64,000 nt of DNA, taken from contig JBBSUV010000003.1 of assembly GCA_038234075.1 (NCBI GenBank), positions 65,136 through 129,135 on the forward strand. Direction: 5' to 3'. A program made the position numbers and the translations under genes. Every line of letters begins with the position of its first letter. Within the stretch, counting starts at the first letter, position 1. The stretch is from Flavobacteriales bacterium. GTDB taxonomy: Bacteria; Bacteroidota; Bacteroidia; Flavobacteriales_F; PHOS-HE28. Below the pieces are notes generated by a model. It made no database searches. It saw nothing but the letters and a program-made list of their open reading frames with translations, and had not been told where the DNA came from. Positions 11,978-39,916 of this stretch are shown here, piece by piece.

Positions 11978-13390
11978 TTGGCACTATCCATGGAATCCTC
12001 CACAGCCCCATCCTCGTTCAGGACCAATGAACTGGTCGCCCTCCGCACCCATTTCGAAAGCGCTGCCACACGGCCATACCAAGCCCGCCGCGATGCCTTG
12101 AAGGCACTGAGGCGCGCGATGAAAAAGCACGAAGAGGAATTGGTGGAGGCCATGCACGCCGACATGCGTAAGCCACGCTTCGAAGCCTACATGGCGGACA
12201 TCGGTCTGGTGTATTCCGAGATCAGCGATGCACTGGATAACCTGAGTGAATGGATGCAACGCATGGATGTGTCCACACCGATCAGCCTGTGGCCCGCGAG
12301 CAGTGCGGTCCATCCGGAGCCGTTGGGCGTGGTGCTGATCGTCTCTCCGTGGAATTATCCCGTGGTGCTTGCGCTTTCACCGCTGGTGGGTGCCATCGCG
12401 GCCGGGAACTGCGCAGTGTTGAAGCCCAGTAATGAAGCGCCAAGGACCTCTGAAGTTTTAGAGCGGATCACTACCGAAGCCTTCCGCAAAGATCATGTGC
12501 TCGTTGTTCAGGGATCCGGTAGCGCCGTGGTGCCGCCGTTGATCGATGCCTTCCATTTCGATCACATCTTCTTCACCGGAAGCACCAGCGTGGGTCGGAA
12601 GATCCTGGCGCAGGCCGCACCGCAGCTCGTGCCCGTCACCTTGGAGCTCGGCGGAAAAAGCCCGGCGATCGTGGACCGGAAAGCGAACATCGACCAAGCG
12701 GCGAAGCGCATCGCATGGAGCAAATTCTTCAATGCAGGTCAGACGTGCATCGCCACCGATCATGCCTTGGTCCATGCCTCCGCGATGGAGCCCTTCCTCG
12801 CTTCCTTCGCGAAGCACACCGACTACTTCTACGGCAAGGAGCCGCGCCAAAGCCCGCATTTCGCACGGCTGGTGAATGACAAGAACTTCGAACGAGTGAG
12901 AGGGTACCTCGGCGATGGCCGCATCCTGATCGGCGGGGAGTATGATGTGAGTGAACGATACATCGCACCCACCGTGCTGACGGAAGTTCCTCTTGAAAGC
13001 TCGGTGATGAAGGAGGAGATCTTCGGCCCGATACTACCGGTGATCCCGTGGAACGAACCGGAGGAGGTGCTCGCGATCGTGCGCCGGAACCCCACGCCGT
13101 TGGCGCTCTATGTCTTCAGCAAAAGCCGTTCGGCACAGCGCTATTTCACGGAACGCATCGCCTTTGGCGGCGGGTGCATCAACCATTGCCTGCTGCACTT
13201 CGGCAACCCGGAACTTCCTTTCGGGGGCGTGGGCACCAGCGGCATGGGTCGCTACCACGGCAAGCAAAGCTTCGATCTCTTCAGCCACTACAAGGGCATC
13301 GTACGTGCTGGATCCTTACCTGAGCCAGGCATCCAGTATCCACCCTACTCCAGTTGGAAAGAGCGCGTTCTGCGCTGGGCGCTGAAGTGA
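11978..13390 (+). CDS. NAD(P)-dependent aldehyde dehydrogenase (ALDH3-like)
   Basis: 470 aa with ELGGKSP, a catalytic Cys in FNAGQTCIA, and a Glu motif. Confidence 0.85.
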   Translation: MALSMESSTAPSSFRTNELVALRTHFESAATRPYQARRDALKALRRAMKKHEEELVEAMHADMRKPRFEAYMADIGLVYSEISDALDNLSEWMQRMDVSTPISLWPASSAVHPEPLGVVLIVSPWNYPVVLALSPLVGAIAAGNCAVLKPSNEAPRTSEVLERITTEAFRKDHVLVVQGSGSAVVPPLIDAFHFDHIFFTGSTSVGRKILAQAAPQLVPVTLELGGKSPAIVDRKANIDQAAKRIAWSKFFNAGQTCIATDHALVHASAMEPFLASFAKHTDYFYGKEPRQSPHFARLVNDKNFERVRGYLGDGRILIGGEYDVSERYIAPTVLTEVPLESSVMKEEIFGPILPVIPWNEPEEVLAIVRRNPTPLALYVFSKSRSAQRYFTERIAFGGGCINHCLLHFGNPELPFGGVGTSGMGRYHGKQSFDLFSHYKGIVRAGSLPEPGIQYPPYSSWKERVLRWALK

Positions 13391-13829: not shown

Positions 13830-15302
13830 ATGTCGAAAAGAACAGCATCACCCGGAAAAGGAAAGGCGGTCAGCCCCTTGTTCCGATCGGCCAACTACAT
13901 CAACGGCGTTTGGAAAAAGACCGGTGATGGCACGTTCAACACCGTGCTGGACAAATACCACGGCACTATGCTGGCCAAACTTCCGCAGGCCACAGCGGAC
14001 CAGATGGAAGAGGCCATCGCCGCCGCCCATGCCAGCAGAGGTACGTTGCACGCGCTGAGCGCTGGCGAGCGCAGTCAAAAGCTGGAGGCATTGGCAAAAC
14101 TGATCGAACAGCGCGCGGATGATCTCGCGATGTTGATCGTGCAGGAGGGCGGAAAACCCATTGGCTATGCCAAAGGCGAGATCGCTCGCTGCATCACCAC
14201 TGTGCGCACCGCAGCGGCCGAGGCGGTCCGCTTCACCGGCGAAATGACACCGATCGACTTCGGAGCCGGTGCAGGGAAAACAGCTTTCACCAAGCGCTTC
14301 CCCATTGGCGTCATCGGCGCGATCACTCCTTTCAACTTCCCGCTGAACCTGGTGCTGCACAAAGTGGCCCCGGCGATGGCCGTCGGCTGCCCCGTCGTAC
14401 TGAAGCCTGCCCATCAGGCGCCCTTGAGCGCACTGGCCCTTGCCGGAATGATGGAAGAGATCGGCTGGCCAAAAGGCGCGTTCAGCGTGTTGACCTGTCA
14501 AACACCCGTTGCCGAGCTGATCGTGAAGGACGATCGCGTGGCCATGCTCAGCTTTACCGGCAGCGACAAGGTCGGCTGGCACCTGAAGGCGTTGTCCGGA
14601 AAGAAGAAGGTGGCATTGGAACTCGGCGGTAACGCTGCCGTGATCATCGACAAGGGTACCGACCTGGCAGCGGCAGCCAAAAGCGTCGCCATGGGTGCCA
14701 ACCTCTACGCCGGGCAAACGTGCATCAGCACCCAGCGCATCTTCGTGGTGAAGGCCGAGTTCGAAAAATTCAAGGTCCTGTTGGTGAAGGAATACAAGGC
14801 GCTGAAAGCCGGAGACCCGGCCGATCCGGCTATTTCTGTCGGGCCGATCATCGACTCGGGGCACTTCGAGCGCATCAGTTCCTGGGTGAAGGAAGCGACG
14901 AAAAGCGGAGCGGAGCTTTTAGCGGGTGGCAAGGCCGTGGATGCCAAGCGCAACGTCTACGCAGCGACACTGCTCACCAAGACCAAGCATTCCATGAAGG
15001 TGGACTGCGCAGAGGTCTTCGGTCCCATCGCCATTGTGGAAGCCGTGAAGGACTTTGCCCAAGGCATCGCACGGGTGAACGACAGCAACTACGGCCTGCA
15101 GGCAGGTGTGTACACCAACAACTTCGAACACGTGAAACAAGCGCACGAAGAGCTGGAGGTAGGCGGGGTGATCATCAACGGTATCCCCGGCTTCCGCATC
15201 GACAGCATGCCATACGGTGGCATCAAGGACAGCGGCCTGGGGCGCGAAGGCCTGAAGTACGCGATGGAAGAGATGAGCGAGCCGCGGTTGATCGTTTACT
15301 GA
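13830..15302 (+). CDS. aldehyde dehydrogenase family protein
   Basis: 490 aa with LELGGNAA, a catalytic Cys in YAGQTCIS, and PFNFPL. Confidence 0.85.
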   Translation: MSKRTASPGKGKAVSPLFRSANYINGVWKKTGDGTFNTVLDKYHGTMLAKLPQATADQMEEAIAAAHASRGTLHALSAGERSQKLEALAKLIEQRADDLAMLIVQEGGKPIGYAKGEIARCITTVRTAAAEAVRFTGEMTPIDFGAGAGKTAFTKRFPIGVIGAITPFNFPLNLVLHKVAPAMAVGCPVVLKPAHQAPLSALALAGMMEEIGWPKGAFSVLTCQTPVAELIVKDDRVAMLSFTGSDKVGWHLKALSGKKKVALELGGNAAVIIDKGTDLAAAAKSVAMGANLYAGQTCISTQRIFVVKAEFEKFKVLLVKEYKALKAGDPADPAISVGPIIDSGHFERISSWVKEATKSGAELLAGGKAVDAKRNVYAATLLTKTKHSMKVDCAEVFGPIAIVEAVKDFAQGIARVNDSNYGLQAGVYTNNFEHVKQAHEELEVGGVIINGIPGFRIDSMPYGGIKDSGLGREGLKYAMEEMSEPRLIVY

Positions 15303-26786: not shown

Positions 26787-27530
26787 GTGAAAAAGATCAA
26801 CGACACCACCATCGCCCTCCTGATCGACGGCGATAACGCGGCACCGCGCCGCCTCGCTCCTATTTTGGAGGAAGTCTCGAAGAAGGGCACCATCACCATC
26901 CGCCGCATCTATGGCGATTGGACCACCACTGGCATGAGCGGCTGGAAGGACCTGCTGAACGCCAACGCCATCCAGCCCGTGCAGCAATTCGCTTACACAA
27001 AGGGCAAGAACAGCACCGACAGCGCGCTCATCATCGATGCCATGGACATCCTCCACGGTGGTATGGTGGACGCCTTCTGTATCGTTAGCAGCGACAGCGA
27101 CTATACCCGTCTCGCGACCCGCTTGCGCGAGGCCGGCCTGTACGTGATGGGCGTAGGTGAGAAAAAGACCCCCGATGCCTTCGTGCAGGCCTGCGAACGC
27201 TTCATCTATGTGGAGAACCTGGATGTGCAGGACGAACCTCGTGCAGCTGCCAAGAAGAACGGCACACGGGCCAAAGCCCCCTCGGCCCCCTTGTCCGGCA
27301 ATGCTTCGCTGATGAAAAAGCTGCGCAAGGCCTTCATCGTGGCCAAAGGAGAGGAGGAGGAAGCCTCGCTGAGCCTTGTGGGCCAAGCCCTGCGTCGGTT
27401 GGACCCGGGCTTCGATCCGCGTAGCTACGGCCACGGCTCGCTCTCTTCCTTGATCAACGCATTGAAGGATCAGGTGGAGACCCGCCGCGAGGAGAAGGGG
27501 AATACGGTTATGATGCGGCTCAAGGGGTGA
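26787..27530 (+). CDS. NYN (LabA-like) RNase-domain protein with C-terminal OST-HTH/LOTUS domain
   Basis: GTG start; ALLIDGDNA...CIVSSDSDYTRLATRLREAGLYVMGVG (NYN); C-terminal ASLSLVGQALRRLDPGFDPRSYGHGSLSSLI (OST-HTH). Confidence 0.7.
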   Translation: MKKINDTTIALLIDGDNAAPRRLAPILEEVSKKGTITIRRIYGDWTTTGMSGWKDLLNANAIQPVQQFAYTKGKNSTDSALIIDAMDILHGGMVDAFCIVSSDSDYTRLATRLREAGLYVMGVGEKKTPDAFVQACERFIYVENLDVQDEPRAAAKKNGTRAKAPSAPLSGNASLMKKLRKAFIVAKGEEEEASLSLVGQALRRLDPGFDPRSYGHGSLSSLINALKDQVETRREEKGNTVMMRLKG

Positions 27531-27626
27531 GGGGGAATTTGAAGCGCCTCTATTCGGGAAGAGTCTATCTGGTGCGAGTGTCAATTCCCGAAAGTCGACC
27601 CGCTAAACCCGCTACCTTGGTCAAGC

Positions 27627-27865
27627 ATGCCCAAACTGTTACAGAAGAACGGCTTCAGCTTTTACTTTTGGAGCGAGGAAGGCAACGAACCACCGCACGT
27701 GCATGTGAGCAAAGGCGAAGGATTGGCCAAGTGGTGGTTGACACCGACGCTTCGAGCAGAATACTCGAACGGCTTCAAGAAATCGGAACAACGACAGATC
27801 AAGGAGCTTATCGAAGAACAGCCTTCATCAAAGCTTGGGAAAAGTACTTCAACGCACATGGATGA
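27627..27865 (+). pseudogene. DUF4160-family gene disrupted by a 1-nt frameshift (or fused in frame to the downstream DUF2442)
   Basis: The N-terminus, MPKLLQKNGFSFYFWSEEGNEPPHVHV..IKELIEEQ, is in frame 0. The expected C-terminus, AFIKAWEKYFNAHG*, is in the -1 frame and ends at 27865. The two frames join at about 27818, where CAG|CC lacks one base. Confidence 0.5.
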
Positions 27866-28232
27866 CGTTCGCGCCACTGATCCGCTTGACCGCTTGATCA
27901 TCGAGGAAGGACTGCGCATCAAAGGGATCCAGCCGGTCCCCGATGGTAGTGCCTTGGTGCTGAAGCTGACCAATGGCGCCACCGTATTCGCGCCGCTGGA
28001 TGATGTGCCGCAATTGGCCAAGGCCAGTAAAAAAGACCGGCTTGCTTACAAGTTGATCGCCAGTGGAACAGCCATCGGTTGGGAAAAGCTGGATGTGCAT
28101 TTGTCCTTGAAGGGCTTCCTCACTTCCGTGGTCCGGAGCGAGGTGATCCGGCGATTGACCGAACCAACACACGGGCCATTTGTTGCCCAAGCACGGAAAC
28201 CCGCACCTGTCCGGACCCGCAAAAAGAATTGA
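27858..28232 (+). CDS. DUF2442-family protein
   Basis: ORF beginning MDDVRATD; core LRIKGIQPVPDGSALVLKLTNGATVFAPLDDV...IGWEKLDVHLSLKGFL matches the DUF2442 pattern. There is an ATGGATGA overlap with the DUF4160 stop. Confidence 0.55.
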   Translation: MDDVRATDPLDRLIIEEGLRIKGIQPVPDGSALVLKLTNGATVFAPLDDVPQLAKASKKDRLAYKLIASGTAIGWEKLDVHLSLKGFLTSVVRSEVIRRLTEPTHGPFVAQARKPAPVRTRKKN

Positions 28233-28237
28233 CCATC

Positions 28238-29545
28238 ATGCGCTATACACCCCTCTCCGCCGCCACCTATCGTGAACACCGTGCCCGTTTCCGCAAGGCC
28301 ATGGAAAAGGGTGGTCTCGCTGTCTTCCACAGCAACGACATCATGCCCACCAGCGCGGACGGCTCCATGCCGTTCCACCAAGCGGCGGATATTTTTCACC
28401 TCAGCGGCATCGATCAGGAAGAGACCGTGTTGCTGCTCTTCCCGGATGCTTTCGACCCGAAGGACCGCGAGATCCTTTTCGTGCGGGAGACCAGCCCGAG
28501 CATCGCCATTTGGGAAGGTGCGAAGCTGACACAGAAGCAGGCCACAGAGCTCAGCGGCATCGCAACCGTGCTGTGGACCAGCAGCTATGAGGCCACCTTG
28601 CAGCGCTTGCTCCCGCAGGCCAGCAGCATCTACCTCAACAGCAACGAGCACCTGCGCCAAAGCAACGAGGTGGAAACACGCGAGGAGCGCAAGAACAAGG
28701 AGTTGCGCGACAAGTACCCTTTGTATGAGGTGAAGCGCAGCGCACCCACCATGCACCGCATCCGTTCGCGGAAAACGGAGGAGGAGATCGCACAGATCCA
28801 GAACGCCGTGAAAATCACCGCCAAGGCGCTACAGCGAGTGCTCCACTTTGTGAAGCCCGGTGTGAAGGAATATGAGATCGAGGCGGAGATCACATACGAG
28901 TTCCTGCGCAACGGCTCGCGCGGCCATGCCTACACGCCGATCATCGCCAGCGGGCACAACGCTTGCGTGCTGCACTACATCACCAACGACGATACCTGCA
29001 AGGACGGAGACATGATCCTGATGGACTTCGGCTCTGAATACGGCGGATACGCCAGCGACCTTACGCGCAGCATTCCGGTGAACGGCAAGTTCACCCCGCG
29101 CCAACGCGATGTGTACAACGCCGTGCTGAATGTGCAAAAGGAAGCAACCAAGCTGCTCCTTCCGGGCGTCTTCCTCGCCGACTACCACAAGCAGGTGGGC
29201 GAGCTGATGGAGAAGGAACTGATCGGCCTCGGCCTGTTGAACAAGGCCGCTGTGGCGAAGCAGGATCCGGAAAAGCCGCTGTACAAAAGGTACTTCATGC
29301 ACGGCACCAGCCACTTCCTCGGCCTTGATGTGCATGATGTTGGCCTCTGGCACGAGCCGATCGTTGAAGGCATGGTCTTCACCGTGGAACCGGGCATCTA
29401 CATCCCCGAGGAGAACCTCGGCATCCGCATCGAGAACAACATCGTGGTGACCAAGAACGGCCAGGACGATCTGTTCAAGGATATTCCACGTGAGGTGGAC
29501 GAGATCGAGGCGCTGATGGCGCAGGGGAAGAAGGTTGTGGCATGA
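28238..29545 (+). CDS. pepP: Xaa-Pro aminopeptidase (M24B)
   Basis: 435 aa from internal ATG; pita-bread fold metal ligands (DGDMILMDFGSEYGGYASDLTR, HGTSHFLGLDVHD, EPGIYIPEE). Confidence 0.85.
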   Translation: MRYTPLSAATYREHRARFRKAMEKGGLAVFHSNDIMPTSADGSMPFHQAADIFHLSGIDQEETVLLLFPDAFDPKDREILFVRETSPSIAIWEGAKLTQKQATELSGIATVLWTSSYEATLQRLLPQASSIYLNSNEHLRQSNEVETREERKNKELRDKYPLYEVKRSAPTMHRIRSRKTEEEIAQIQNAVKITAKALQRVLHFVKPGVKEYEIEAEITYEFLRNGSRGHAYTPIIASGHNACVLHYITNDDTCKDGDMILMDFGSEYGGYASDLTRSIPVNGKFTPRQRDVYNAVLNVQKEATKLLLPGVFLADYHKQVGELMEKELIGLGLLNKAAVAKQDPEKPLYKRYFMHGTSHFLGLDVHDVGLWHEPIVEGMVFTVEPGIYIPEENLGIRIENNIVVTKNGQDDLFKDIPREVDEIEALMAQGKKVVA

Positions 29546-29893
29546 TCCACCGGCACTCCACACTGGAGCAGATCGAAAGGGATTTCTGGCCCGCTGGGGA
29601 ATATCCAACGGGATTGGTAAAGCGATGTCATGAGGTTGCGGAAGGTGCCGCTCAACCGGCTCACGGTGGAGGACCTCCGTCTATTGATCGGGCAGGGCAT
29701 CGGTCTTCAATACCTTGTTCCCATAGCACTTGAGTTTCTCGAAGTAGACCCATTGGTGGAAGGTGACTATTTCCCAGGGGACCTATTGAAGAACGTACTG
29801 GCTGTGAAAGATGCATATTGGCACGAACACGTGGAACAAAAGCTCGCACTCGAAAGAATAGCTGCTCCTGTTCTCGACCGATTGAAGAAGTAG
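29542..29893 (+). pseudogene. CdiI-like contact-dependent-inhibition immunity protein, frameshifted
   Basis: The N-terminal part (MIHRHSTLEQIERDFWPAGEYPTGLVKRCHE) is in frame 1. The C-terminal part (LRKVPLNRLTVEDLRLLIGQGIGLQYLVPIALEFLEVDPLVEGDYFPGDLLKNVL) is in frame 2. The two frames switch near 29640. The ATG overlaps the pepP stop as ATGA. Confidence 0.45.
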
Positions 29894-29942
29894 TTGTCTC
29901 ACGCTCCACTTCCTCCCCCTTATCTTCGCAAGAGCAACCACA

Positions 29943-30200
29943 ATGGAAACAAGCCTGCGCATCAAGGTATCGGAATTGGACATGGATCTTTTGAACAAGA
30001 TCAAACGCTTGTTCGATAAGGACCGTGAACTCACGCTGACCATCCGCTCCAGCACGGATTTCGAGCTGACACGGTCGGAAAGCAAGAAGGTGTATCTCCA
30101 GCGCTTGGACAAGGCGATCAAGAACCTTGAAAAAGGAAATGCGGTAACGCTTTCAGAGGCTGATCTGGATGCCTTGGTGATCGAGCGCCTCAAGGCATGA
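29943..30200 (+). CDS. yefM: type II antitoxin Phd/YefM family (copy A)
   Basis: 85 aa upstream of and overlapping a YoeB toxin; 97-98% identical to the 50790..51047 copy. Confidence 0.7.
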   Translation: METSLRIKVSELDMDLLNKIKRLFDKDRELTLTIRSSTDFELTRSESKKVYLQRLDKAIKNLEKGNAVTLSEADLDALVIERLKA

Positions 30201-30466
30201 AACGCATCATCTTCGAGCAGAATGCCTATGAAGATTTCTGCGATTGGGGAATCTATGACAAAGCACGGTACATTAAGATCCACGACCTGATCAAGGCTAT
30301 CCTTCGGGAACCCTTCAAAGGAGTGGGCAAACCGGAACCATTGAAGGGAGCGCTCAAAGGCTATTGGTCCCGGCGGATCGATGAAAAGCATCGGCTGGTC
30401 TACCGAATGACCAGTGAAGGGTCTGTTGAGATAGTGAGCTGCAAAGGGCACTACGGGGATAAGTGA
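30197..30466 (+). CDS. yoeB: type II toxin YoeB/Txe family (copy A)
   Basis: 89 aa; motifs PFKGVGKPEPLKGALKGYWSRRIDEKHRLVY...GHY. Confidence 0.8.
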   Translation: MKRIIFEQNAYEDFCDWGIYDKARYIKIHDLIKAILREPFKGVGKPEPLKGALKGYWSRRIDEKHRLVYRMTSEGSVEIVSCKGHYGDK

Positions 30467-30553: not shown

Positions 30554-33307
30554 ATGCCTACATCCGAACCCACTCAAGAGCATTTTAATGCCACCCGGCT
30601 TCGCACGCATACGTGGGACCATCTGAAAACAGCCGTCTCCGAGTTGGCGGTGGCCAAGTCCGGCACGAGCGGATCCGTGAGCGAGGTGGACGCATTACTC
30701 GAGGATCTGCAAGTGATCGAACAGTACTGGGCCTTTCCCGGAAGGGATGCGGTCCAGGGCCTTCGCAACATGCTTGCACGCAAAGAATATGCGGCACTGG
30801 AATCGCGGGTTTTGAAACTTGTGCGCACGTTGGTGAGCGGCCAGGTCCGGTTGAACACGGGCGAACAGGAGGAGCATGCACTGGACCACGAGGATGATAG
30901 CCAGGAACGCCCACGCACGAAGTATTTCGAGGTGCTCTTCGTGGACGACCTGAGCGAGAAGGAGGAACGCGAGCTGAAGGCGAACCTCGCCGATGTCAGG
31001 GAGCCCAACGATCCCTTCACTTATGATGTCATCGTGGTGCCCACGGTGCAGGACGCCCTCATCGCGCTGCTCTTCAACTCCAACATCCAGGCGTGTGTGA
31101 TCCGATACGGCATGCCCTTCGCCTCGGAAAACGCCAAGGGGTTCCTGAAGGACTACATCCGTGCTATCACAGAGGTGGACCTCAGTGATCGCAACAAGGC
31201 GGACATGGGGCCACTTCTCGGCAAGCTCATGCGCTGGTTCCGCCCGGAGGTGGACCGCTACTACGTCACCGACACGCCCGTGAGCGACCTGAAAGACACG
31301 ACGGTGCAGAACTTCCGCCGGATCTTCTACCGTCAAGAGGATCATCAAGAACTGCACCTCAACCTGCTAAGAGGTGTGCAGGAGAAGTACGATACGCCCT
31401 TCTTCACGGCACTGATGGACTACAGCCGCCGGCCAATGGGCGTGTTCCATGCCATGCCGATCTCGCGTGGCAACTCGGTGTTCAAGAGCCGTTGGATCCA
31501 GGACTTCGGTGACTTCTATGGTCGCAACCTCTTTCTCGCGGAGACCTCCAGCACCAGCGGTGGATTGGACTCGTTGCTTCAACCGACCGGCCCGCTGAAG
31601 AAGGCGCAGGAACGCGCCGCGCGCGCTTTCGGGGCACAATTCACCTACTTCGCCACCAATGGCACAAGCACTAGCAACAAAATCGTGCTCCAAGCGCTGG
31701 TGGAGCCGCACGACATGGTGCTGATCGACCGCGATTGCCACAAGAGCCACCACTACGGCTTGGTGCTTTCCGGCGCCTACCCGGTTTATCTCGACAGCTA
31801 TCCGCTACCGGACTACAGCATGTACGGGGCGGTGCCGTTGGAGGTGATCCGGGAAAAGCTGCTCGAGCTGAAACGTGCCGGACGCCTTCACCATGTGAAG
31901 ATGCTGCTGCTCACCAACTGCACCTTCGACGGCGTGGTTTACAACGTGCAGCGCGTGATGGAACAGGTGCTCGCCATCAAGCCGGACATGATCTTCCTCT
32001 GGGATGAGGCTTGGTTCGCCTTCGCGGGCTTCAGCTACATCTTCAAGCAGCGCACCGCCATGTTCAGCGCCGCTCGCCTGCACCGCAAGTACCACAGCGA
32101 TGCCTACCGCGAGGAATACAACGCACACATCGCCTCATTGAAAAAGGGCGAAGAGCCGCGCATGCCCGACCCCGACAAGGTGCGCATCCGCGTCTACGCC
32201 ACGCAGAGCACGCACAAGACACTTACGTCCATGCGCCAGGGCAGCATGATCCACATCTGGGATGAGGACTTCCGCCGCAAGAGCGAGGACAGCTTCCACG
32301 AGGCCTACATGGCGCACACCAGCACCAGCCCCAATTACCAGATCCTCGCCAGCCTCGACGTGGGCCGCAGGCAAGTGGAATTCGAGGGCTACGAGCTGGT
32401 GGAAAAGGCGATCGAGCAAGGCATGCTGCTGCGCCATAAGATCAACGACCACCCCAAGCTGCGGCGCTATTTCGACGTGGTGACCTTGGAAGACCTCGTG
32501 CCCGCCAAGTTCCGTCCCAGTGGGCTGAGGGAATATTATACCAAGGAGAAAGGTTGGAACAGGATCGAGGAGGCTTGGGCGAACGACGAGTTCACCGTGG
32601 ACCCCACCAAGATCAACCTGTACACTGGCAAGACGGGCGTGGACGGTGACACCTTCAAGAACCGGTACTTGATGGACAAGCACCAGATCCAGGTGAACAA
32701 GACCTCGCGCAACAGCGTGTTGTTCATGACGAACATCGGCACCACGCGCGGCTCCGTGGCCTACCTGATCAAGGTGCTCCTCACCATCGCCGACGAGCTG
32801 GAGGCGCGCAACAACGCGCTGAACCACGCCGAGAAGCAACTGCACATCGCACGCATCCGTTCACTCACACAGGAAACGCCACCACTACCGGATTTCAGCC
32901 GCTTCCACGATTCCTTCCGCGCAGTGCCCGGTGTGCCCGGCGGCGACCTGCGCAAGGCCTACTTCCTCTCCTACAACGAGCTGAACTGTGAGTATGTGAA
33001 GATCCGCGATTGCCATGGTAGGATGTGCGATGGGCGTGAGCTCGTCTCGGCCAGCTTCGTCATCCCCTACCCGCCCGGCTTCCCCGTGTTGGTGCCCGGC
33101 CAAGTGGTGAGCAAGGACATCCTCGACTTCCTCATCGCCATCGACGTGAAGGAAATACATGGCTATCGCGAAGATCTGGGCCTGCGCGTGTTCAACGATC
33201 ATGCGCTGGGAAGGCAGCGGACCGGGACCGCTATGGGCGGAATGCGGATCCCAGCGCCGCAGGAAAACGGTAACTCTACAAGTTCGAGCAAGAAGAAAAA
33301 AGCATGA
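30554..33307 (+). CDS. fold-type I PLP-dependent Orn/Lys/Arg decarboxylase family protein with long N-terminal extension and receiver-like wing domain
   Basis: 917 aa. The OKR_DC_1 major domain has TNGTSTSNKIVL and the PLP-lysine motif YATQSTHKTL. A receiver-like wing domain is present (YFEVLFVDD...DVIVVPTVQDALIALL). An extra ~130-aa N-terminal segment precedes it. Confidence 0.75.
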   Translation: MPTSEPTQEHFNATRLRTHTWDHLKTAVSELAVAKSGTSGSVSEVDALLEDLQVIEQYWAFPGRDAVQGLRNMLARKEYAALESRVLKLVRTLVSGQVRLNTGEQEEHALDHEDDSQERPRTKYFEVLFVDDLSEKEERELKANLADVREPNDPFTYDVIVVPTVQDALIALLFNSNIQACVIRYGMPFASENAKGFLKDYIRAITEVDLSDRNKADMGPLLGKLMRWFRPEVDRYYVTDTPVSDLKDTTVQNFRRIFYRQEDHQELHLNLLRGVQEKYDTPFFTALMDYSRRPMGVFHAMPISRGNSVFKSRWIQDFGDFYGRNLFLAETSSTSGGLDSLLQPTGPLKKAQERAARAFGAQFTYFATNGTSTSNKIVLQALVEPHDMVLIDRDCHKSHHYGLVLSGAYPVYLDSYPLPDYSMYGAVPLEVIREKLLELKRAGRLHHVKMLLLTNCTFDGVVYNVQRVMEQVLAIKPDMIFLWDEAWFAFAGFSYIFKQRTAMFSAARLHRKYHSDAYREEYNAHIASLKKGEEPRMPDPDKVRIRVYATQSTHKTLTSMRQGSMIHIWDEDFRRKSEDSFHEAYMAHTSTSPNYQILASLDVGRRQVEFEGYELVEKAIEQGMLLRHKINDHPKLRRYFDVVTLEDLVPAKFRPSGLREYYTKEKGWNRIEEAWANDEFTVDPTKINLYTGKTGVDGDTFKNRYLMDKHQIQVNKTSRNSVLFMTNIGTTRGSVAYLIKVLLTIADELEARNNALNHAEKQLHIARIRSLTQETPPLPDFSRFHDSFRAVPGVPGGDLRKAYFLSYNELNCEYVKIRDCHGRMCDGRELVSASFVIPYPPGFPVLVPGQVVSKDILDFLIAIDVKEIHGYREDLGLRVFNDHALGRQRTGTAMGGMRIPAPQENGNSTSSSKKKKA

Positions 33308-35034
33308 GCAAGAAGAATTTGAAAAAGGCCGCGGCGACCAAAGTGAAGCCTGCTCCAGCCAATAAGAAGGTCGTTGCAAAGAAGAAAGCGGCCACCCCTT
33401 CTCGAGCGATCACCAAGGCCGTGGCCCAAAAGCCACCCGTGGCGAAGCGGGCCGCTGCCAAAAAGAAGGCCGGCCCCGCTGCCCGAACGGCCACCAAGGC
33501 CGTGGTCAAAAAGCGCCCTGTAGTGAAGCGCGCTGTCGCCAAAAAGAAGGCCGGTGCACGCAAGAAGAAAACCGGTCCTTCAGTCCTGCGCGGCGTCAGT
33601 GACATCCGGCGTTTTTTCCACCGCAACGAGACGCCGATCTACTTCATCAGCGCCACCAACTTCAATCTGCTTGGCGCGGACGAATGGATCAAGGGCTTCA
33701 AGTTCATCACCTACATCGACTGCTTCGATGGGATGCATCCCAACCTGATGAGCCCGCAGAACGAGCAGCCGCACGCCGAGTTCCAGAGCATCGAGGACAT
33801 CAACAACTACCTGCTCACCCACAGCACGGTGAAGGACTACATCGAGAAGCGGAAGAAGGGGAAGAGCGCGGGAAAGGCCCTCTTCCTCATGTTCGACGAG
33901 GAGACTGAAAAGCGTGCGCGGAAGCTGGGCTTGGACGTGATCTTCCCCAGCGCCAAGATGCGCACCTTCATGGACAACAAGGTGAACACCAACCGCGTGG
34001 CTGAGAAGGCCGGCGTGCCCTGTGTGCCCTATGTGCTCAGCCCGGTGAAGAACTATGCGCACCTCAATAAGGTGTCGGCGAAGCTTGGCAACGACCTCGT
34101 GTTGCAAACGCCCTTCGGCGATAGCGGCCATACCACCTTCTTCATCAGCAACGAGACGGAATACCGCAAGTATGCCAAGGAGATCGAGGCCGAGAAGGAG
34201 TGCAAGATCATGAAGCGCATCAATTGCCGCGGCGCGGCGATGGAGGCTTGCGTCACGCACCACGGTACGATCGTGGCCCCGCTCATGACCGAGCTGGTGG
34301 GCTTCAAGGAACTGACCCCGTACAAGGGAGGCTGGTGCGGCAACGAGATCTATGCCGAGGCCTTCACGCCCACCATCCGCCGCAAGGCCCGGAAATATGC
34401 GCAGCTCTTCGGCGACCAGCTCCGCAAGGAAGGCTACAAGGGCTACTTCGAGCTGGACTTTCTCATCGACCAGGACAATGGCGAGATCTACCTCGGCGAG
34501 TTGAACCCGCGCATCACCGGCGCCAGTAGCATCACCAACCACGCGGCCTTCGCCATGAGCGACGCGCCGCTCCACCTTTTCCACATCCTGGAATGGATGG
34601 ACAGGCCATACACGCTGAACGTGAACGGGCTGAACCGCCGCTGGGCCAATGCCGAGAACATCGACTCTTGGGGCCAGATGGTGATCAAGCACACCGTGGA
34701 CGACATCCGCAGCGTTACTGAGGCGCCTCGTAGCGGCATCTGGCACATGCGGCCCGACGGTAGCATCCAGTTCCTGCGCATGGACACCCATCGCCGCTAC
34801 GTGGAGACCGAGGACGAGGCCTTCTTCCTTCGCATCACACGCGTGGGCGACTGGCTTTACGAAGGTGCCGACATGGGCATCCTCGTGATGCGCGGCCGGA
34901 TGATGACCGATGAATTCGAACTGCTCGAGCGTTCCAAGAAATGGCTGAAGGCGATCAAGGCGCAGTACAAGAGCGTGTCGCCCGGGGAGGATAAGACCGG
35001 GCCTTTAGAGATCGGTGGTTTCAAGATGATGTGA
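33304..35034 (+). CDS. ATP-grasp family ligase with ~110-aa histone-H1-like Lys/Ala/Pro-rich N-terminal tail
   Basis: 576 aa. The N-terminus is made of KKAAATKVKPAPANKKVVAKKKAA.. repeats. The ATP-grasp core follows (VLQTPFGDSGHTTFFI..., GYFELDFLIDQDNGEIYLGELNPRITGAS). The ATG overlaps the decarboxylase stop as ATGA. Confidence 0.65.
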   Translation: MSKKNLKKAAATKVKPAPANKKVVAKKKAATPSRAITKAVAQKPPVAKRAAAKKKAGPAARTATKAVVKKRPVVKRAVAKKKAGARKKKTGPSVLRGVSDIRRFFHRNETPIYFISATNFNLLGADEWIKGFKFITYIDCFDGMHPNLMSPQNEQPHAEFQSIEDINNYLLTHSTVKDYIEKRKKGKSAGKALFLMFDEETEKRARKLGLDVIFPSAKMRTFMDNKVNTNRVAEKAGVPCVPYVLSPVKNYAHLNKVSAKLGNDLVLQTPFGDSGHTTFFISNETEYRKYAKEIEAEKECKIMKRINCRGAAMEACVTHHGTIVAPLMTELVGFKELTPYKGGWCGNEIYAEAFTPTIRRKARKYAQLFGDQLRKEGYKGYFELDFLIDQDNGEIYLGELNPRITGASSITNHAAFAMSDAPLHLFHILEWMDRPYTLNVNGLNRRWANAENIDSWGQMVIKHTVDDIRSVTEAPRSGIWHMRPDGSIQFLRMDTHRRYVETEDEAFFLRITRVGDWLYEGADMGILVMRGRMMTDEFELLERSKKWLKAIKAQYKSVSPGEDKTGPLEIGGFKMM

Positions 35035-35157
35035 GCGCAGGCGTACCACAAGGTTTTTATACCACGAAGGACGCTAAGGACACGAAGGAAATAGTAGACC
35101 AAAGGAGAGAACGAATGATGACGAGTGCCGAACTGTTGAACTGTGCACTTCCCGTTA

Positions 35158-35544
35158 ATGACTGCTGACGAACTTTCCCATATTGTGATAGGACGGGCCA
35201 TTGCGGTTCATAGCGACCTAGGGCCGGGATTGTTCGAGAAGATCTATGAGAAGGCGTTGGCCTATGAACTGAGGAATCTGGGCTTTGCTGTTCAAGACCA
35301 GTTGGAGCTGCCTGTGATCTATAAGGGCCAGAACTTGGATATGGGATATCGGCTTGACCTTCTGGTTGAAGGGAAGTTGATCATTGAGGTGAAGGCGATA
35401 TCGGCATTTGACGAGATACACATGTCGCAAGTCCTGACCTATCTTAAACTCCCCGGTTGTACCCTTGGTCTCCTGCTTAACTTCAATGTGGGCCAAATGA
35501 AAAAAGGGATCAAGCGGATTGCTTTGGGTGATCCGAACAAATGA
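35158..35544 (+). CDS. GxxExxY protein (PD-(D/E)XK-like)
   Basis: It carries the GLFEKIYEKALAYEL motif and LDLLVEGKLIIEVKA. Confidence 0.75.
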   Translation: MTADELSHIVIGRAIAVHSDLGPGLFEKIYEKALAYELRNLGFAVQDQLELPVIYKGQNLDMGYRLDLLVEGKLIIEVKAISAFDEIHMSQVLTYLKLPGCTLGLLLNFNVGQMKKGIKRIALGDPNK

Positions 35545-35663
35545 TGCGATCAAGAACCCGAACATTCTCATGAGCGTATTTTTCGCTGATATTCTCCGTC
35601 CATTCATGAGACTTCGCCTCACTCCTTCGTGTTCTTCGCGTCCTTCGTGGTAGTCATTCCCTC

Positions 35664-36656
35664 ATGTACATCCATCTAAAACTCATCCACGAACCGCTTC
35701 CCTCAGAGCGTTGGCTGCGGTTCTTCAACCGCGTCTGGCCGCTCTACCTTGACTGGTTCGTGAGCGAGGGCCATGGAAAGCGCGCAGAGCTGCCCGAATG
35801 CCGGAACGCCTTGGCCGTGCACATGCCGGAGCTTCTGCCCTTTTACGACCGCATGTGCGAGCTGGCCGGTGGCGGTGACCTCGAGTCGCGCTTCCTGAGC
35901 ATGTGGTGCCCGCCCGCCTACATGGCCGGCTGCTCTCAGGCCGCATGGGTGCGCGGCAATCCCACCTTGGTGCGCAACTATGATTACGATCCGCGCCTTT
36001 TCGATGGGCGCATGCGCTATACCGAATGGCTGAAGCCGGTGATCAGTATACAGGACAGTGCGTGGGGCGCGCTGGACGGCATGAACGTCGACGGACTTGC
36101 AATTGCACTGGCTTTCGGTGGAAGGAAGGTGAGCGGAGTCGGCTTCGGCATCCCGCTGGTGGTGCGCTATGTGCTGGAGACCTGCTCCACCACTGCAGAG
36201 GCGATGGCCGCCCTCAGCCGCATCCCCGTGCACATGAGCTACAACGTGATCGCCTTGGACAAGGACGGGAACTACGCGGTGGCCTACCTCAACCCCGATC
36301 GGCCCGCCAAAGTGGTGAAGAAGCCCGTGTGCACCAACTTCCAGGAACAGGTGGAATGGGACGAATACGCCGCCTTCACCCAGACCTTGCAGCGGAACGA
36401 CTACCTGGAGGATATGCTGCGCGACGAGAATGTGGACCGTGCCCAATTGATGAAACGCTTCCTGAAGCCGCCCCTCTATCACCAGCAATACCTCCGCGGC
36501 TTCGGCACCCTCTACAGCGTGGCCTACGATCTCAAACGCAGGAAAGCCCGTGTCTTCTGGCCCGATCAGCATATCGAGGTCGGCTTCAACGACTTCGTAG
36601 AGCAGGACCTGAAGGTGGTCCTTTTGCGGCCTGCGGGACGCTATATGGCCAAATAG
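35664..36656 (+). CDS. C45-family autoproteolytic Ntn-hydrolase (acyl-CoA:6-APA acyltransferase / choloylglycine-hydrolase-like)
   Basis: 330 aa. The AGCSQAAW processing site has a Gly-Cys nucleophile. The C-terminus is a CGH/AAT-like fold (NVIALDKDGNYAVAYLNPD). Confidence 0.6.
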   Translation: MYIHLKLIHEPLPSERWLRFFNRVWPLYLDWFVSEGHGKRAELPECRNALAVHMPELLPFYDRMCELAGGGDLESRFLSMWCPPAYMAGCSQAAWVRGNPTLVRNYDYDPRLFDGRMRYTEWLKPVISIQDSAWGALDGMNVDGLAIALAFGGRKVSGVGFGIPLVVRYVLETCSTTAEAMAALSRIPVHMSYNVIALDKDGNYAVAYLNPDRPAKVVKKPVCTNFQEQVEWDEYAAFTQTLQRNDYLEDMLRDENVDRAQLMKRFLKPPLYHQQYLRGFGTLYSVAYDLKRRKARVFWPDQHIEVGFNDFVEQDLKVVLLRPAGRYMAK

Positions 36657-39415: not shown

Positions 39416-39916
39416 ATGTTCCGGAACGATAAAGCCCACGAAACCATGACCAAGCCCAGCGAACCCGTCAGCCCCGGCAAGATCAACAGCATCATGGAAG
39501 GCACCGTCATCGAGGGCGAAGTGCGTTCCGACAGCAATGTCCGCATCGACGGAAAGGTGAAGGGCACCATCAACGTGCGGGGTCGCCTCATCGTGGGCGC
39601 CACCGGCATCGTGGAGGGCAACGTGACCTGCCAGAGCAGTGACATCGAAGGCACCGTAAAGGGAAAGATCAACTGCCAGGACCTGCTTTCGCTGAAGGCC
39701 ACTGCCAAGTTGGACGGCGACATCATCACGAAGAAATTAGCCATCGAACCCGGTGCTGAGTTCACCGGCAATTGCAACATGGGCGGTGGAGGTTCCATCA
39801 AGGAGCCGGAACCCGTGCGGCTCAGCACCTCTTCGGAGCGGTCGACCGGCAGCGGATCGATCGGTAGCGGCCCAAGTGCCAGCTCCCGGCCCGAGCCCGT
39901 GAAGGCCTCCCTTTGA
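39416..39916 (+). CDS. bactofilin (polymer-forming cytoskeletal protein)
   Basis: Beta-helical repeats (VIEGEVRSDSNVRIDGKVKGTINVRGRLIVGATGIVEGNVTC...) and a C-terminal Ser/Gly-rich tail. Confidence 0.8.
   Translation: MFRNDKAHETMTKPSEPVSPGKINSIMEGTVIEGEVRSDSNVRIDGKVKGTINVRGRLIVGATGIVEGNVTCQSSDIEGTVKGKINCQDLLSLKATAKLDGDIITKKLAIEPGAEFTGNCNMGGGGSIKEPEPVRLSTSSERSTGSGSIGSGPSASSRPEPVKASL

Follow-up and report, generated by a model that had tools for sequence, protein, structure and literature searches.

A conserved gene module for a decarboxylase, an ATP-grasp ligase, and a C45 hydrolase that may make and cleave a GABA- or glutamate-derived amide

The window analyzed in this study is a 64,000-nucleotide stretch of DNA from a Flavobacteriales bacterium. 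It carries a trio of genes for a decarboxylase, an ATP-grasp ligase, and a C45 hydrolase, and all three open reading frames (ORFs) were confirmed on the + strand at the coordinates given here.

29943-30200: 85-aa ORF partnering YoeB, with no match in a family search
30197-30466: YoeB toxin gene, upstream flank
30554-33307, + strand: decarboxylase, 917 aa (ORF and OKR_DC_1 match)
32216-32218: codon for K555, the predicted PLP-binding Lys of the decarboxylase
33304-35034, + strand: ATP-grasp ligase, 576 aa (NF005096/PRK06524 family)
33304-33597, + strand: polybasic N-terminal tail of the ligase, residues 1-98
35060-35652, + strand: inserted GxxExxY cassette with inverted repeats at both ends
35060-35089 and 35623-35652: inverted-repeat arms, 30 nt
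35143-35544, + strand: GxxExxY/PDDEXK_3 ORF (PDDEXK_3, TIGR04256)
35664-36656, + strand: C45 (AAT-like) proenzyme (Pfam AAT, NF040521)
35931-35933: codon for C45 Cys90 (predicted self-cleavage between Gly89 and Cys90)

As claimed in an earlier note on this DNA, the three genes are co-oriented, and the decarboxylase stop codon and ligase start codon share an ATGA overlap (33304-33307, reading GCATGAGC). The flanks had likewise been described correctly as toxin-antitoxin-like and sprE-like: YoeB and its 85-aa partner ORF lie upstream, and a PorW/SprE gene forms the downstream flank of the module. A search of the locus with PADLOC anti-phage models gave no match except a spurious one to the C45 protein (E 0.0018).

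The ligase and C45 genes are separated by 629 bp, and this gap holds the GxxExxY ORF (PDDEXK_3, E 9e-41; TIGR04256, E 6e-41). The 30-nt inverted repeats around this ORF are 93% complementary, and the GC content of the cassette is 0.53 compared to about 0.59 in its surroundings. In most relatives the ligase and C45 genes are directly adjacent, and comparable cassettes flanked by inverted repeats lie between other genes of this cluster in three loci (L011, L014, and L016). The GxxExxY gene is an insertion bracketed by inverted repeats and lies outside the module, in keeping with its earlier description as filler.

Conservation of the arrangement was surveyed in a one-genome-per-species collection, wherein at least 596 stretches encode the ligase, and neighborhood counts were taken from fetched loci with enough flanking sequence. 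The interpretation in the earlier note had been made to depend on the co-occurrence of decarboxylase and ligase genes in related genomes, and this was borne out by 63 of 66 loci with the decarboxylase upstream of the ligase. The distance is at most 2 kb in 60 of the 66, and roughly 36 of the 63 have the two genes spaced by -4 to 50 nt. A C45 gene is located downstream of the ligase in 50 of 64 loci. The linkage of the trio is far beyond chance, and the three genes constitute a genuine conserved module that is co-transcribed in appearance. Most non-mycobacterial carriers sampled have the decarboxylase translationally coupled to the ATP-grasp ligase, usually with C45 as well, and culturable carriers include Salegentibacter, Psychroflexus, Brumimicrobium, Taibaiella, Robertkochia, and Permianibacter.

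The cluster was confirmed in eight phyla, and the same gene order is found in Gemmatimonadota, Balneolaceae, Chloroflexota, Bacteroidota, Pseudomonadota, Acidobacteriota, and Myxococcota. Across 86 genome loci and the window, only eight families recur around the ligase: the ligase itself, the decarboxylase, C45, a CN-hydrolase, a class-III aminotransferase, a small VOC-like protein, an aldehyde dehydrogenase, and an APC permease. Composition varies among lineages. Roughly one in five decarboxylase-ligase loci has no C45, some lineages have VOC, decarboxylase, and ligase genes without C45, and an Ignavibacteriota contig carries only decarboxylase, ligase, and SSADH genes. Metagenome loci, which come mostly from a distant high-GC branch, retain the ligase-C45 pair in 31 of 47 cases overall, and in this branch the pair has no decarboxylase neighbor. 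The trio is therefore not an obligate unit.

The operon of most relatives also includes GabT-like and SSADH-like genes, and Nit2-like genes are present too; no GabT-like, SSADH-like, or CN-hydrolase gene lies within the 64,000-nt window. The operon aminotransferase matches E. coli GabT and PuuE (E about 1e-113; 1e-112 for PuuE) and scores 497.5 bits with TIGR00700, just short of the 506.65 cutoff. The best match of the dehydrogenase is NADP-SSADH, at 525 bits under a cutoff of 730. In most carriers sampled, the operon would otherwise encode a complete GABA shunt.

According to the earlier note, the decarboxylase would produce putrescine, cadaverine, or agmatine. The ligase would then acylate this amine and C45 would deacylate it, a scheme that we consider very unlikely. 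Equally improbable is its corollary that the module is a nonhomologous analogue of Puu/Pau gamma-glutamylation or of glutathionylspermidine synthetase/amidase. The top Pfam and NCBIfam models for the decarboxylase are indeed Orn/Lys/Arg decarboxylases (Pfam OKR_DC_1, E 9e-80), and the aminotransferase, aldehyde dehydrogenase, and amide hydrolases of the wider operon resemble a Puu-type parts list. Copper amine oxidase and amidase genes, found sporadically beside ligase-C45 in the high-GC branch, also fit polyamine metabolism. However, scores with models of characterized Lys/Arg/Orn decarboxylases fall far under their cutoffs (e.g., 212 bits versus 968), and the cluster contains no GSP_synth, CHAP, glutamine-synthetase-like, or C26 proteins. 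Within the trio itself, Pfam scans (E <= 0.01) found neither GSP_synth nor CHAP domains. Further evidence against a polyamine product comes from Rv2531c of Mycobacterium tuberculosis, the only characterized long-form ("KOR") decarboxylase, which rejects Lys, Orn, and Arg.

Rv2531c (PDB 9N0N/9N0O) aligns end to end with the window decarboxylase (HMMER, E 1.3e-244), with residues 14-901 matched to residues 23-920 of the 947-aa chain in a single alignment. Both proteins have the four-domain long-form architecture of about 900-950 aa (N-terminal helical, receiver-like, catalytic, and C-terminal), with identities of 25%, 27%, 55%, and 48% in the respective domains and 45% overall. Two papers on Rv2531c name nine residues of the glutamate and PLP site, of which eight are kept. 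Kept Rv2531c positions are S381, H405, K406, S567, the PLP Lys K570, R576, T606, S607, and N731, whereas R718 is replaced by Lys. The same pattern, including Lys in place of R718, recurs in 62 of 62 ligase-linked homologues. R576, the proposed binder of the glutamate gamma-carboxylate in Rv2531c, is thus invariant in this set, which again speaks against a polyamine precursor as substrate. ATP-grasp proteins and gene neighbors are not mentioned in either paper. In the M. tuberculosis genome, Rv2531c is not known to have an ATP-grasp or C45 neighbor.

Purified Rv2531c decarboxylates L-glutamate to GABA but does not act on Lys, Orn, or Arg, and a 2026 paper revised the function of the long-form decarboxylase from Lys/Orn/Arg to glutamate by using knockout, 13C labeling, and NMR data (PMC13506015). 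Likewise, an apicomplexan "lysine decarboxylase" was reported to act as a glutamate decarboxylase (PMC5189940), and Toxoplasma and Plasmodium sequences fall within the Rv2531c cluster of a sequence network (PMC13506015). Given the homology to Rv2531c, the kept residues, and the GabT-, SSADH-, and Nit2-like operon genes of relatives, the window decarboxylase is probably an L-glutamate decarboxylase, which would make GABA, not a polyamine, the probable amine. A GABA-shunt role for Rv2531c matches the GabT-like and SSADH-like neighbors seen in relatives. The "polyamine-amide" of the earlier note should be replaced by a GABA- or glutamate-derived amide. Points against this reading are the identity to Rv2531c of only 45% and the Lys that stands for R718 in all 62 ligase-linked homologues. 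In addition, the K0.5 of Rv2531c for glutamate is 509 mM (PMC13506015), and family members may therefore prefer a substrate other than free glutamate.

The ligase has weak Pfam matches (CPSase_L_D2 and ATP-grasp_3) and exceeds the cutoff of the equivalog-level NCBIfam model NF005096 "biotin carboxylase" (756 bits versus 684), whereas it reaches only 29-35 bits with genuine AccC models, whose cutoffs are 597-768. Its closest sequence relatives and top Foldseek matches are biotin carboxylases and PurK, at 13-15% identity to this clade. A profile alignment to pyruvate carboxylase, the sole basis for the residue assignments, pairs QVEH with TGAS and MLKA with VVQT, such that the biotin carboxylase catalytic Glu296 becomes Ala and the ATP-binding Lys159 becomes an invariant Gln (E. 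coli biotin carboxylase numbering). Among the 86 genome loci and the window, no biotin carboxyl carrier protein (BCCP) or carboxyltransferase gene recurs near the ligase. Because the catalytic Glu and ATP-binding Lys are missing by HMM alignment and there is no BCCP or carboxyltransferase partner, we judge the "biotin carboxylase" name of NF005096 to be a misnomer. The earlier note had cautioned that the ligase might prove to be a known housekeeping enzyme. This holds formally for the NF005096 name but not for the residues or partners expected of a biotin carboxylase.

A bicarbonate-dependent enzyme of biotin carboxylase/PurK type is nevertheless the alternative suggested by these nearest relatives. 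Carboxyphosphate would be the intermediate of such a ligase, and an amine such as GABA would be N-carboxylated or carbamoylated; we regard this as unlikely. The kept Mg ligands and Arg of ELNPR are consistent with this chemistry. So is the CN-hydrolase of the wider operon, whose best named NCBIfam match is N-carbamoylputrescine amidase, albeit a weak one (80 bits versus 410). An extension of similarly low probability has CO2 from the decarboxylase perhaps being re-used, with the CN-hydrolase or C45 acting on a ureido or carbamate product. In place of a BCCP or carboxyltransferase gene, the ligase gene invariably has a linked decarboxylase gene, C45 gene, or both. Amino-acid and peptide ATP-grasp ligases of the BesA, PylC, and PGM1 types are only 11-14% identical to it and do not share its gene context.

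The polybasic N-terminal tail reported in the earlier note is evident in the 98 residues before the ligase core, which include 34 K/R, 32 A/P, and no D/E; the tail is presumably disordered and has no Pfam match. In 117 close homologues, tails have a median length of 63 aa (range 10-124) and consist of about 35% K/R and about 1% D/E, and their sequence is not conserved. Balneolaceae, Chitinophagales, and others have a short tail or none at all, and in the distant high-GC branch a hydrophobic N-terminal helix takes its place. The tail may be a lineage-variable localization device, perhaps one directed at the membrane or some other polyanion, that would stand outside catalysis.

A tail whose histone-H1-like composition is maintained in many Bacteroidota could instead belong to a ligase that modifies a macromolecule in the manner of RimK, LysX, or TTL, for example by appending Glu or GABA to the C-terminus of a protein, or by regulating the decarboxylase. 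The tail would then tether the enzyme to ribosomes, the nucleoid, polyphosphate, or the membrane. We assign a low probability to this activity and just as low a one to the tethering. Tight translational coupling would suit a stoichiometric ligase-decarboxylase complex, and the 64-88% identity of the ligase across fetched genome loci fits a protein with many contacts. The hysteresis, strong cooperativity, and unusual Mg2+ requirement of Rv2531c (PMC13506015) also point in this direction.

The C45 protein exceeds the cutoffs of Pfam AAT (PF03417; 107.7 bits versus 23.2) and NCBIfam NF040521 C45_proenzyme (158.9 bits versus 85). Among 26 homologues with identities down to 47%, Cys90, R104, N105, Y106, and D107 are invariant and Gly89 is nearly so (>=90%), and self-cleavage is predicted between Gly89 and Cys90. 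Profile matches in the PDB are weak and correspond to choloylglycine hydrolases, and phmmer against the PDB found no meaningful relative (best E 0.066, an unrelated protein). Isopenicillin-N acyltransferase, the founder of family C45, is likewise a proenzyme of this size (about 330-360 aa) and also has its Gly-Cys self-cleavage site inside the chain, some 90-100 residues after the N-terminus. That enzyme cleaves an aminoadipyl omega-amide, whose chemistry resembles that of a gamma-glutamyl or 4-aminobutanoyl amide. However, the similarity is only at the family level (Pfam, 108 bits), and the window gene comes from a bacterium and does not sit in a beta-lactam context.

As its name indicates, family C45 was founded on an acyltransferase, and the N-terminal Cys of class-II amidotransferases plays an equivalent role. 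Rather than hydrolyzing the ligase product, C45 could be an Ntn subunit that donates an amide or ammonia to the ligase, forming a ligase-C45 amidotransferase, or an acyltransferase that passes on an activated acyl group. The ligase-C45 pair is the most widely conserved one in the wider family, even where the decarboxylase is missing. Nonetheless, there is no fusion or overlap that would indicate a complex, C45 is lacking from the fraction of decarboxylase-ligase loci noted above, and Pfam and PDB profile searches detected no similarity to GATase class-II domains. This arrangement is improbable in our estimation.

We favor, with a probability of roughly 45%, the view that the trio is a local form of a widespread GABA-shunt operon in which C45 cleaves a GABA- or glutamate-derived amide supplied by the ligase. 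The order and overlap of the genes, their conservation, their families, and the retained residues are observed, whereas the substrates of all three enzymes are inferred. The 917-aa enzyme would convert L-glutamate to GABA, as its close homology to Rv2531c and its context suggest. The ATP-grasp enzyme would use ATP to form an acyl-phosphate and join a carboxylate to an amine. It might conjugate GABA to a second small molecule, or it might make a gamma-glutamyl amide from which the decarboxylase then yields a 4-aminobutanoyl amide. After self-cleavage, C45 would hydrolyze or transfer the amide and free GABA. In most other genomes, the GabT-like, SSADH-like, and Nit2-like enzymes of the same operon would carry GABA to succinate. 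A point against the amide is that a ligase and a hydrolase acting on one bond would cycle futilely, barring regulation or a further step between the two.

Known systems offer partial parallels. By analogy only, the Puu/Pau pathway forms an ATP-dependent amide that is later hydrolyzed, has GABA as an intermediate, and is finished by GabT/PuuE-like and SSADH-like enzymes. However, PuuA is a glutamine-synthetase homologue and PuuD is of the C26 amidotransferase type, whereas the corresponding enzymes here are an ATP-grasp ligase and a C45 Ntn hydrolase. The module also lacks an oxidase, and its entry enzyme is a glutamate-type decarboxylase. Glutathionylspermidine synthetase/amidase similarly pairs an ATP-dependent amide synthetase with a Cys-nucleophile amidase on an amine conjugate, but the proteins here are separate rather than fused, and the amine is probably GABA, not spermidine.

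We found no paper describing a pathway or function for ligase-C45, which accords with the earlier remark that the system was not recognizable as a characterized pathway. A broader proposal, which we offer tentatively and lean against, is that hundreds of species from at least eight phyla share an unrecognized, ATP-consuming branch of glutamate/GABA metabolism, in which GABA or its gamma-glutamyl precursor is carried as an amide conjugate that a new ATP-grasp family builds and C45 releases. If this is true, the conjugate would be a new bacterial metabolite, for example a storage form, osmolyte, signal, or protected intermediate. Should the ligase indeed produce an amide from GABA or glutamate, the systematic "biotin carboxylase" misannotation of thousands of database entries would be corrected, and the module would add both a new metabolite and a new step to a central pathway.

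Three genes on the forward strand make up the module, with a small filler gene between the second and the third.

Genes of the module and the filler gene (window coordinates, strand, product, and Pfam or NCBIfam match)
30554-33307, +, decarboxylase, 917 aa; OKR_DC_1, E 9e-80
33304-35034, +, ligase, 576 aa; weak ATP-grasp signal; NCBIfam NF005096/PRK06524 "biotin carboxylase"
35143-35544, +, filler gene, 133 aa; PDDEXK_3/GxxExxY
35664-36656, +, C45 gene, 330 aa; AAT / C45_proenzyme (158.9 bits, cut-off 85)

The decarboxylase stop codon overlaps the ligase start codon (GCATGAGC). On the 5' side of the module are genes for a YoeB toxin and its 85-aa partner ORF, which has no family match, a CdiI_3 immunity protein and an Xaa-Pro aminopeptidase, and on the 3' side is PorW/SprE. 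The ORF list and the Pfam and NCBIfam matches agree with every element of the earlier note's description of the trio, including the ATGA overlap, the polybasic tail, the filler and the flanks, as well as its placement of three co-oriented genes between a toxin-antitoxin module and a sprE-like gene. A Rfam search over 29.5-37.0 kb returned nothing credible, no forward-strand terminator was found between the module genes, and PADLOC gave no defence-system match. A sigma-70 promoter scan saw no promoter, but since promoters in Bacteroidota depart from the sigma-70 model, this result carries no information. The exact window ligase sequence has no record in the assembly index.

Many small accessory genes are present just 5' of the module (26787-30466), a position filled in other phyla by aminotransferase and CN-hydrolase genes. 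A bactofilin gene (39416-39916) directly follows PorW/SprE.

Small accessory genes 5' of the module (window coordinates)
26787-27530, NYN + OST-HTH/LOTUS protein
27627-28232, DUF4160+DUF2442 protein
29630-29893, CdiI_3 immunity gene, an orphan with no CdiA nearby
29943-30200, YoeB partner ORF, 85 aa, upstream of YoeB
30197-30466, YoeB toxin

A homologous set in Gemmatimonadales consists of a decarboxylase (912 aa), a ligase joined to it by an ATGA overlap and a C45 gene, without the filler, and is preceded by genes for a class-III aminotransferase, a CN-hydrolase and a small protein. The same arrangement was reached from C45 homologues in Rhodohalobacter, Anaerolineaceae and Cyclobacteriaceae, and also occurs in Permianibacter (without the aminotransferase), Acidobacteria and Myxococcales. 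Scanning of a one-genome-per-species collection revealed at least 596 stretches that encode the ligase, from which 80 loci were fetched. When all ORFs from 86 loci and the window were clustered, only eight families were found to recur around the ligase.

Recurrent families (loci among the 86 loci and the window) and their positions (denominators include only loci with enough flank)
Ligase: 83 loci
Decarboxylase: 80 loci; upstream of the ligase in 63/66, less than 2 kb from it in 60/66
C45: 64 loci; downstream of the ligase in 50/64
CN-hydrolase: 56 loci; near the ligase in 43/55
Aminotransferase: 52 loci; near the ligase in 41/55
Small VOC-like protein: 49 loci; near the ligase in 38/55
Aldehyde dehydrogenase: 38 loci; SSADH-like dehydrogenase near the ligase in 32/58
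APC permease: 10 loci

Given these conservation statistics, we rejected chance adjacency, and the linkage whose conservation the earlier note proposed to check is kept on both sides of the ligase in most loci. The most frequent order is AT3-CNh-VOC-DC-LIG-C45-SSADH. Only the trio is present in the window and its nearest relatives (loci L007 and L009), and a tblastn search of the whole 64-kb window gave no GabT-like, CN-hydrolase, VOC-like or permease gene. The window does carry two aldehyde dehydrogenase genes (11978-13390 and 13830-15302, about 440 bp apart), and such a pair is also found 5' of the trio in L009. Their best NCBIfam matches, benzaldehyde and lactaldehyde dehydrogenase, are both below cut-off, and they were rejected as orthologues of the SSADH-like gene because they are only 27-29% identical to it. 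The VOC-like protein (about 136-188 aa; L001:4703-5269, L006:2705-3115 and 47 more loci) is encoded directly 5' of the decarboxylase in 38/55 loci and has only faint similarity to the glyoxalase/bleomycin-resistance (VOC) family (E 0.03). In some Chitinophagales-type loci it is the sole partner of the decarboxylase-ligase pair.

The window decarboxylase matches Rv2531c of Mycobacterium tuberculosis (PDB 9N0N/9N0O) over its full length (E 1.3e-244), with 45% identity overall and 55% in the catalytic domain. Rv2531c was the first member of a long four-domain form of the Lys/Orn/Arg decarboxylase superfamily to be characterised (2026), and its sequence cluster includes members from Flavobacteriia, Myxococcia and apicomplexans (PMC13506015). 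Its deletion lowers cellular GABA by 84% and abolishes 13C-labelled GABA entirely (PMC13506015). Action as a glutamate decarboxylase had earlier been reported for an apicomplexan "lysine decarboxylase" (PMC5189940). In Rv2531c numbering, the window protein keeps S381, H405, K406, S567, K570 (the PLP lysine), R576, T606, S607 and N731, and replaces Arg718 with Lys (residue 702 of the window decarboxylase, codon 32657-32659). The same pattern, including R718K, is found in 62/62 full-length ligase-linked decarboxylases (the window and 61 homologues from L001-L089, the genome-set loci). Of the residues discussed in connection with glutamate recognition, only this one changes systematically, and R718K might serve as a sequence marker of the ligase-coupled subfamily.

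Gene context adds to this picture. The aminotransferase of the operon in relatives matches E. coli GabT/PuuE (E 1e-113) and scores 497.5 bits against TIGR00700 (cut-off 506.65), and the best match of the dehydrogenase, below the model cut-off, is NADP-succinate-semialdehyde dehydrogenase. Given the homology to Rv2531c, the residue conservation and these GabT-like and SSADH-like neighbours, the product is most probably GABA and not a polyamine. The earlier note had proposed a polyamine-type amine, a reading we now regard as improbable: pure Rv2531c decarboxylates L-glutamate but is inactive on Lys, Orn and Arg (PMC13506015), and the residues concerned, apart from Arg718, are kept in the window protein. 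Because the K0.5 of Rv2531c for glutamate is 509 mM (PMC13506015), some family members could act better on a derivative of glutamate.

The chemistry of the ligase is harder to assign. By sequence, the nearest solved structure is a biotin carboxylase (E 5e-07), which matches over the ATP-binding region only and is not close. AlphaFold gave an unusable model (pLDDT 54) from a shallow alignment of sequences about 80% identical, and a confident one (pLDDT 89, pTM 0.88) from 71 sequences at 56-90% identity. Foldseek searches with this model rank biotin carboxylases and PurK at the top (TM ~0.6, 13-15% identity), and with such mixed structural neighbours the predicted fold leaves bicarbonate chemistry and amide ligation undecided. 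The earlier note had considered that the protein might be a housekeeping ligase or a carboxylase subunit, and it scores 756 bits against NF005096, the model named "biotin carboxylase" (cut-off 684). However, profile alignment places Ala at the catalytic Glu296 of biotin carboxylase and an invariant Gln at Lys159, AccC models score no more than 35 bits, and neither a biotin carrier nor a carboxyltransferase recurs near the ligase among the 86 loci and the window. These features argue against a true biotin carboxylase. A BC/PurK-like bicarbonate enzyme is in our view unlikely.

The ligase family is very strongly conserved: the window core shares 64-88% identity with the ligases of the 80 loci fetched from the genome collection, and identity to homologues in other phyla is 56-76%. 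Residues 1-98 include 34 Lys/Arg and no Asp/Glu. This polybasic tail is conserved among homologues in composition and not in sequence (median 63 aa, range 10-124, about 35% K/R); it is short or absent in Balneolaceae, Hyphomicrobiales, many Cytophagales and Chitinophagales, and is replaced by a hydrophobic N-terminal anchor in other branches. Its variability, the anchor elsewhere and a permease gene located between the decarboxylase and ligase genes in Cyclobacteriaceae suggest that the tail may localise the ligase, perhaps to the membrane. We assign a low probability to a macromolecule-modifying or regulatory role for the enzyme. At the overlap (window 33280-33330), the decarboxylase C-terminus (SSSKKKKA) and the ligase N-terminus (MSKKNLKK) yield Lys-rich peptide from two frames.

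Across 26 C45 homologues, the most distant at 47% identity, no sequence departs from Cys90 or from R104-N105-Y106-D107, and Gly89 is almost invariant. The predicted cleavage site is about 90 residues from the N-terminus, a position like that in isopenicillin-N acyltransferase, which is cleaved at Gly102/Cys103, and unlike that in bile-salt hydrolases, where the Cys is at position 2. Profile comparison to the PDB gave weak similarity to choloylglycine hydrolases only. We favour a hydrolase, and think it improbable that the protein instead acts as an amide donor or transferase.

The filler gene is an insertion. Its ORF is in a lower-GC stretch bracketed by a 30-nt inverted repeat (35060-35089 / 35623-35652), and in related Flavobacteriales similar cassettes have repeatedly entered different gaps between genes of this operon. 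The gene was rejected as a functional member of the module because this flanked insertion is absent from most relatives. Its removal would leave about 37 nt between the ligase and C45 genes.

GxxExxY/PDDEXK_3 cassettes flanked by inverted repeats (26-48 nt)
Window 35060-35652
L011:3712-4247
L011:5258-5806
L014:12621-13139
L016:3800-4471

The cassettes resemble the GxxExxY ORFs with flanking stems that occur in intervening sequences of 23S rRNA. In the mRNA, such a stem could be cut by RNase III, which would separate the ligase part of the transcript from the C45 part.

A metagenome scan was seeded with a distant branch whose ligase is 45-53% identical to that of the window and whose DNA is about 70% GC. 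In the whole metagenome set, the C45 gene is downstream of the ligase in 31/47 loci and the decarboxylase is upstream in 5/34, all five being lower in GC (0.52-0.67). Ligases of the high-GC branch (L090-L169, GC ~0.70) have an N-terminal hydrophobic helix and a Pro-rich linker and lack a polybasic tail. There the C45 gene is kept 3' of the ligase and the decarboxylase neighbour is absent, with sporadic neighbours that include M20 and S9 peptidases, a copper amine oxidase, an amidase and a GabT-like gene. Because of these loci, and of some Chitinophagales-type loci that have only VOC-decarboxylase-ligase, we conclude that ligase-C45 is the older pair and decarboxylase-ligase is the tight pair in the clade of the window.

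Taken at the level of genes, these observations are direct; all substrates are ones we infer. Our preferred reading, with a probability of roughly 0.45, is a three-step route in which the decarboxylase would convert glutamate to GABA, the ATP-grasp enzyme would form an amide involving GABA, and the C45 enzyme would cleave the amide so made. Alternatively, the ligase might make a gamma-glutamyl amide before the decarboxylase acts. Where the full operon is present, its GabT-like and SSADH-like products would then convert GABA to succinate. The earlier note did not recognise the pathway as a characterised one, and we likewise found no paper that links an ATP-grasp enzyme or C45 to this decarboxylase. 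The Rv2531c papers make no mention of ATP-grasp proteins, gene neighbourhoods or operon context, and the full-text literature search turned up no account of the ligase family or of a connection with C45 or GABA. Characterisation of the decarboxylase family dates from 2026. All parts of the module come from familiar superfamilies. The locus would represent a GABA-shunt operon to which an uncharacterised pair of ligase and hydrolase has been added.
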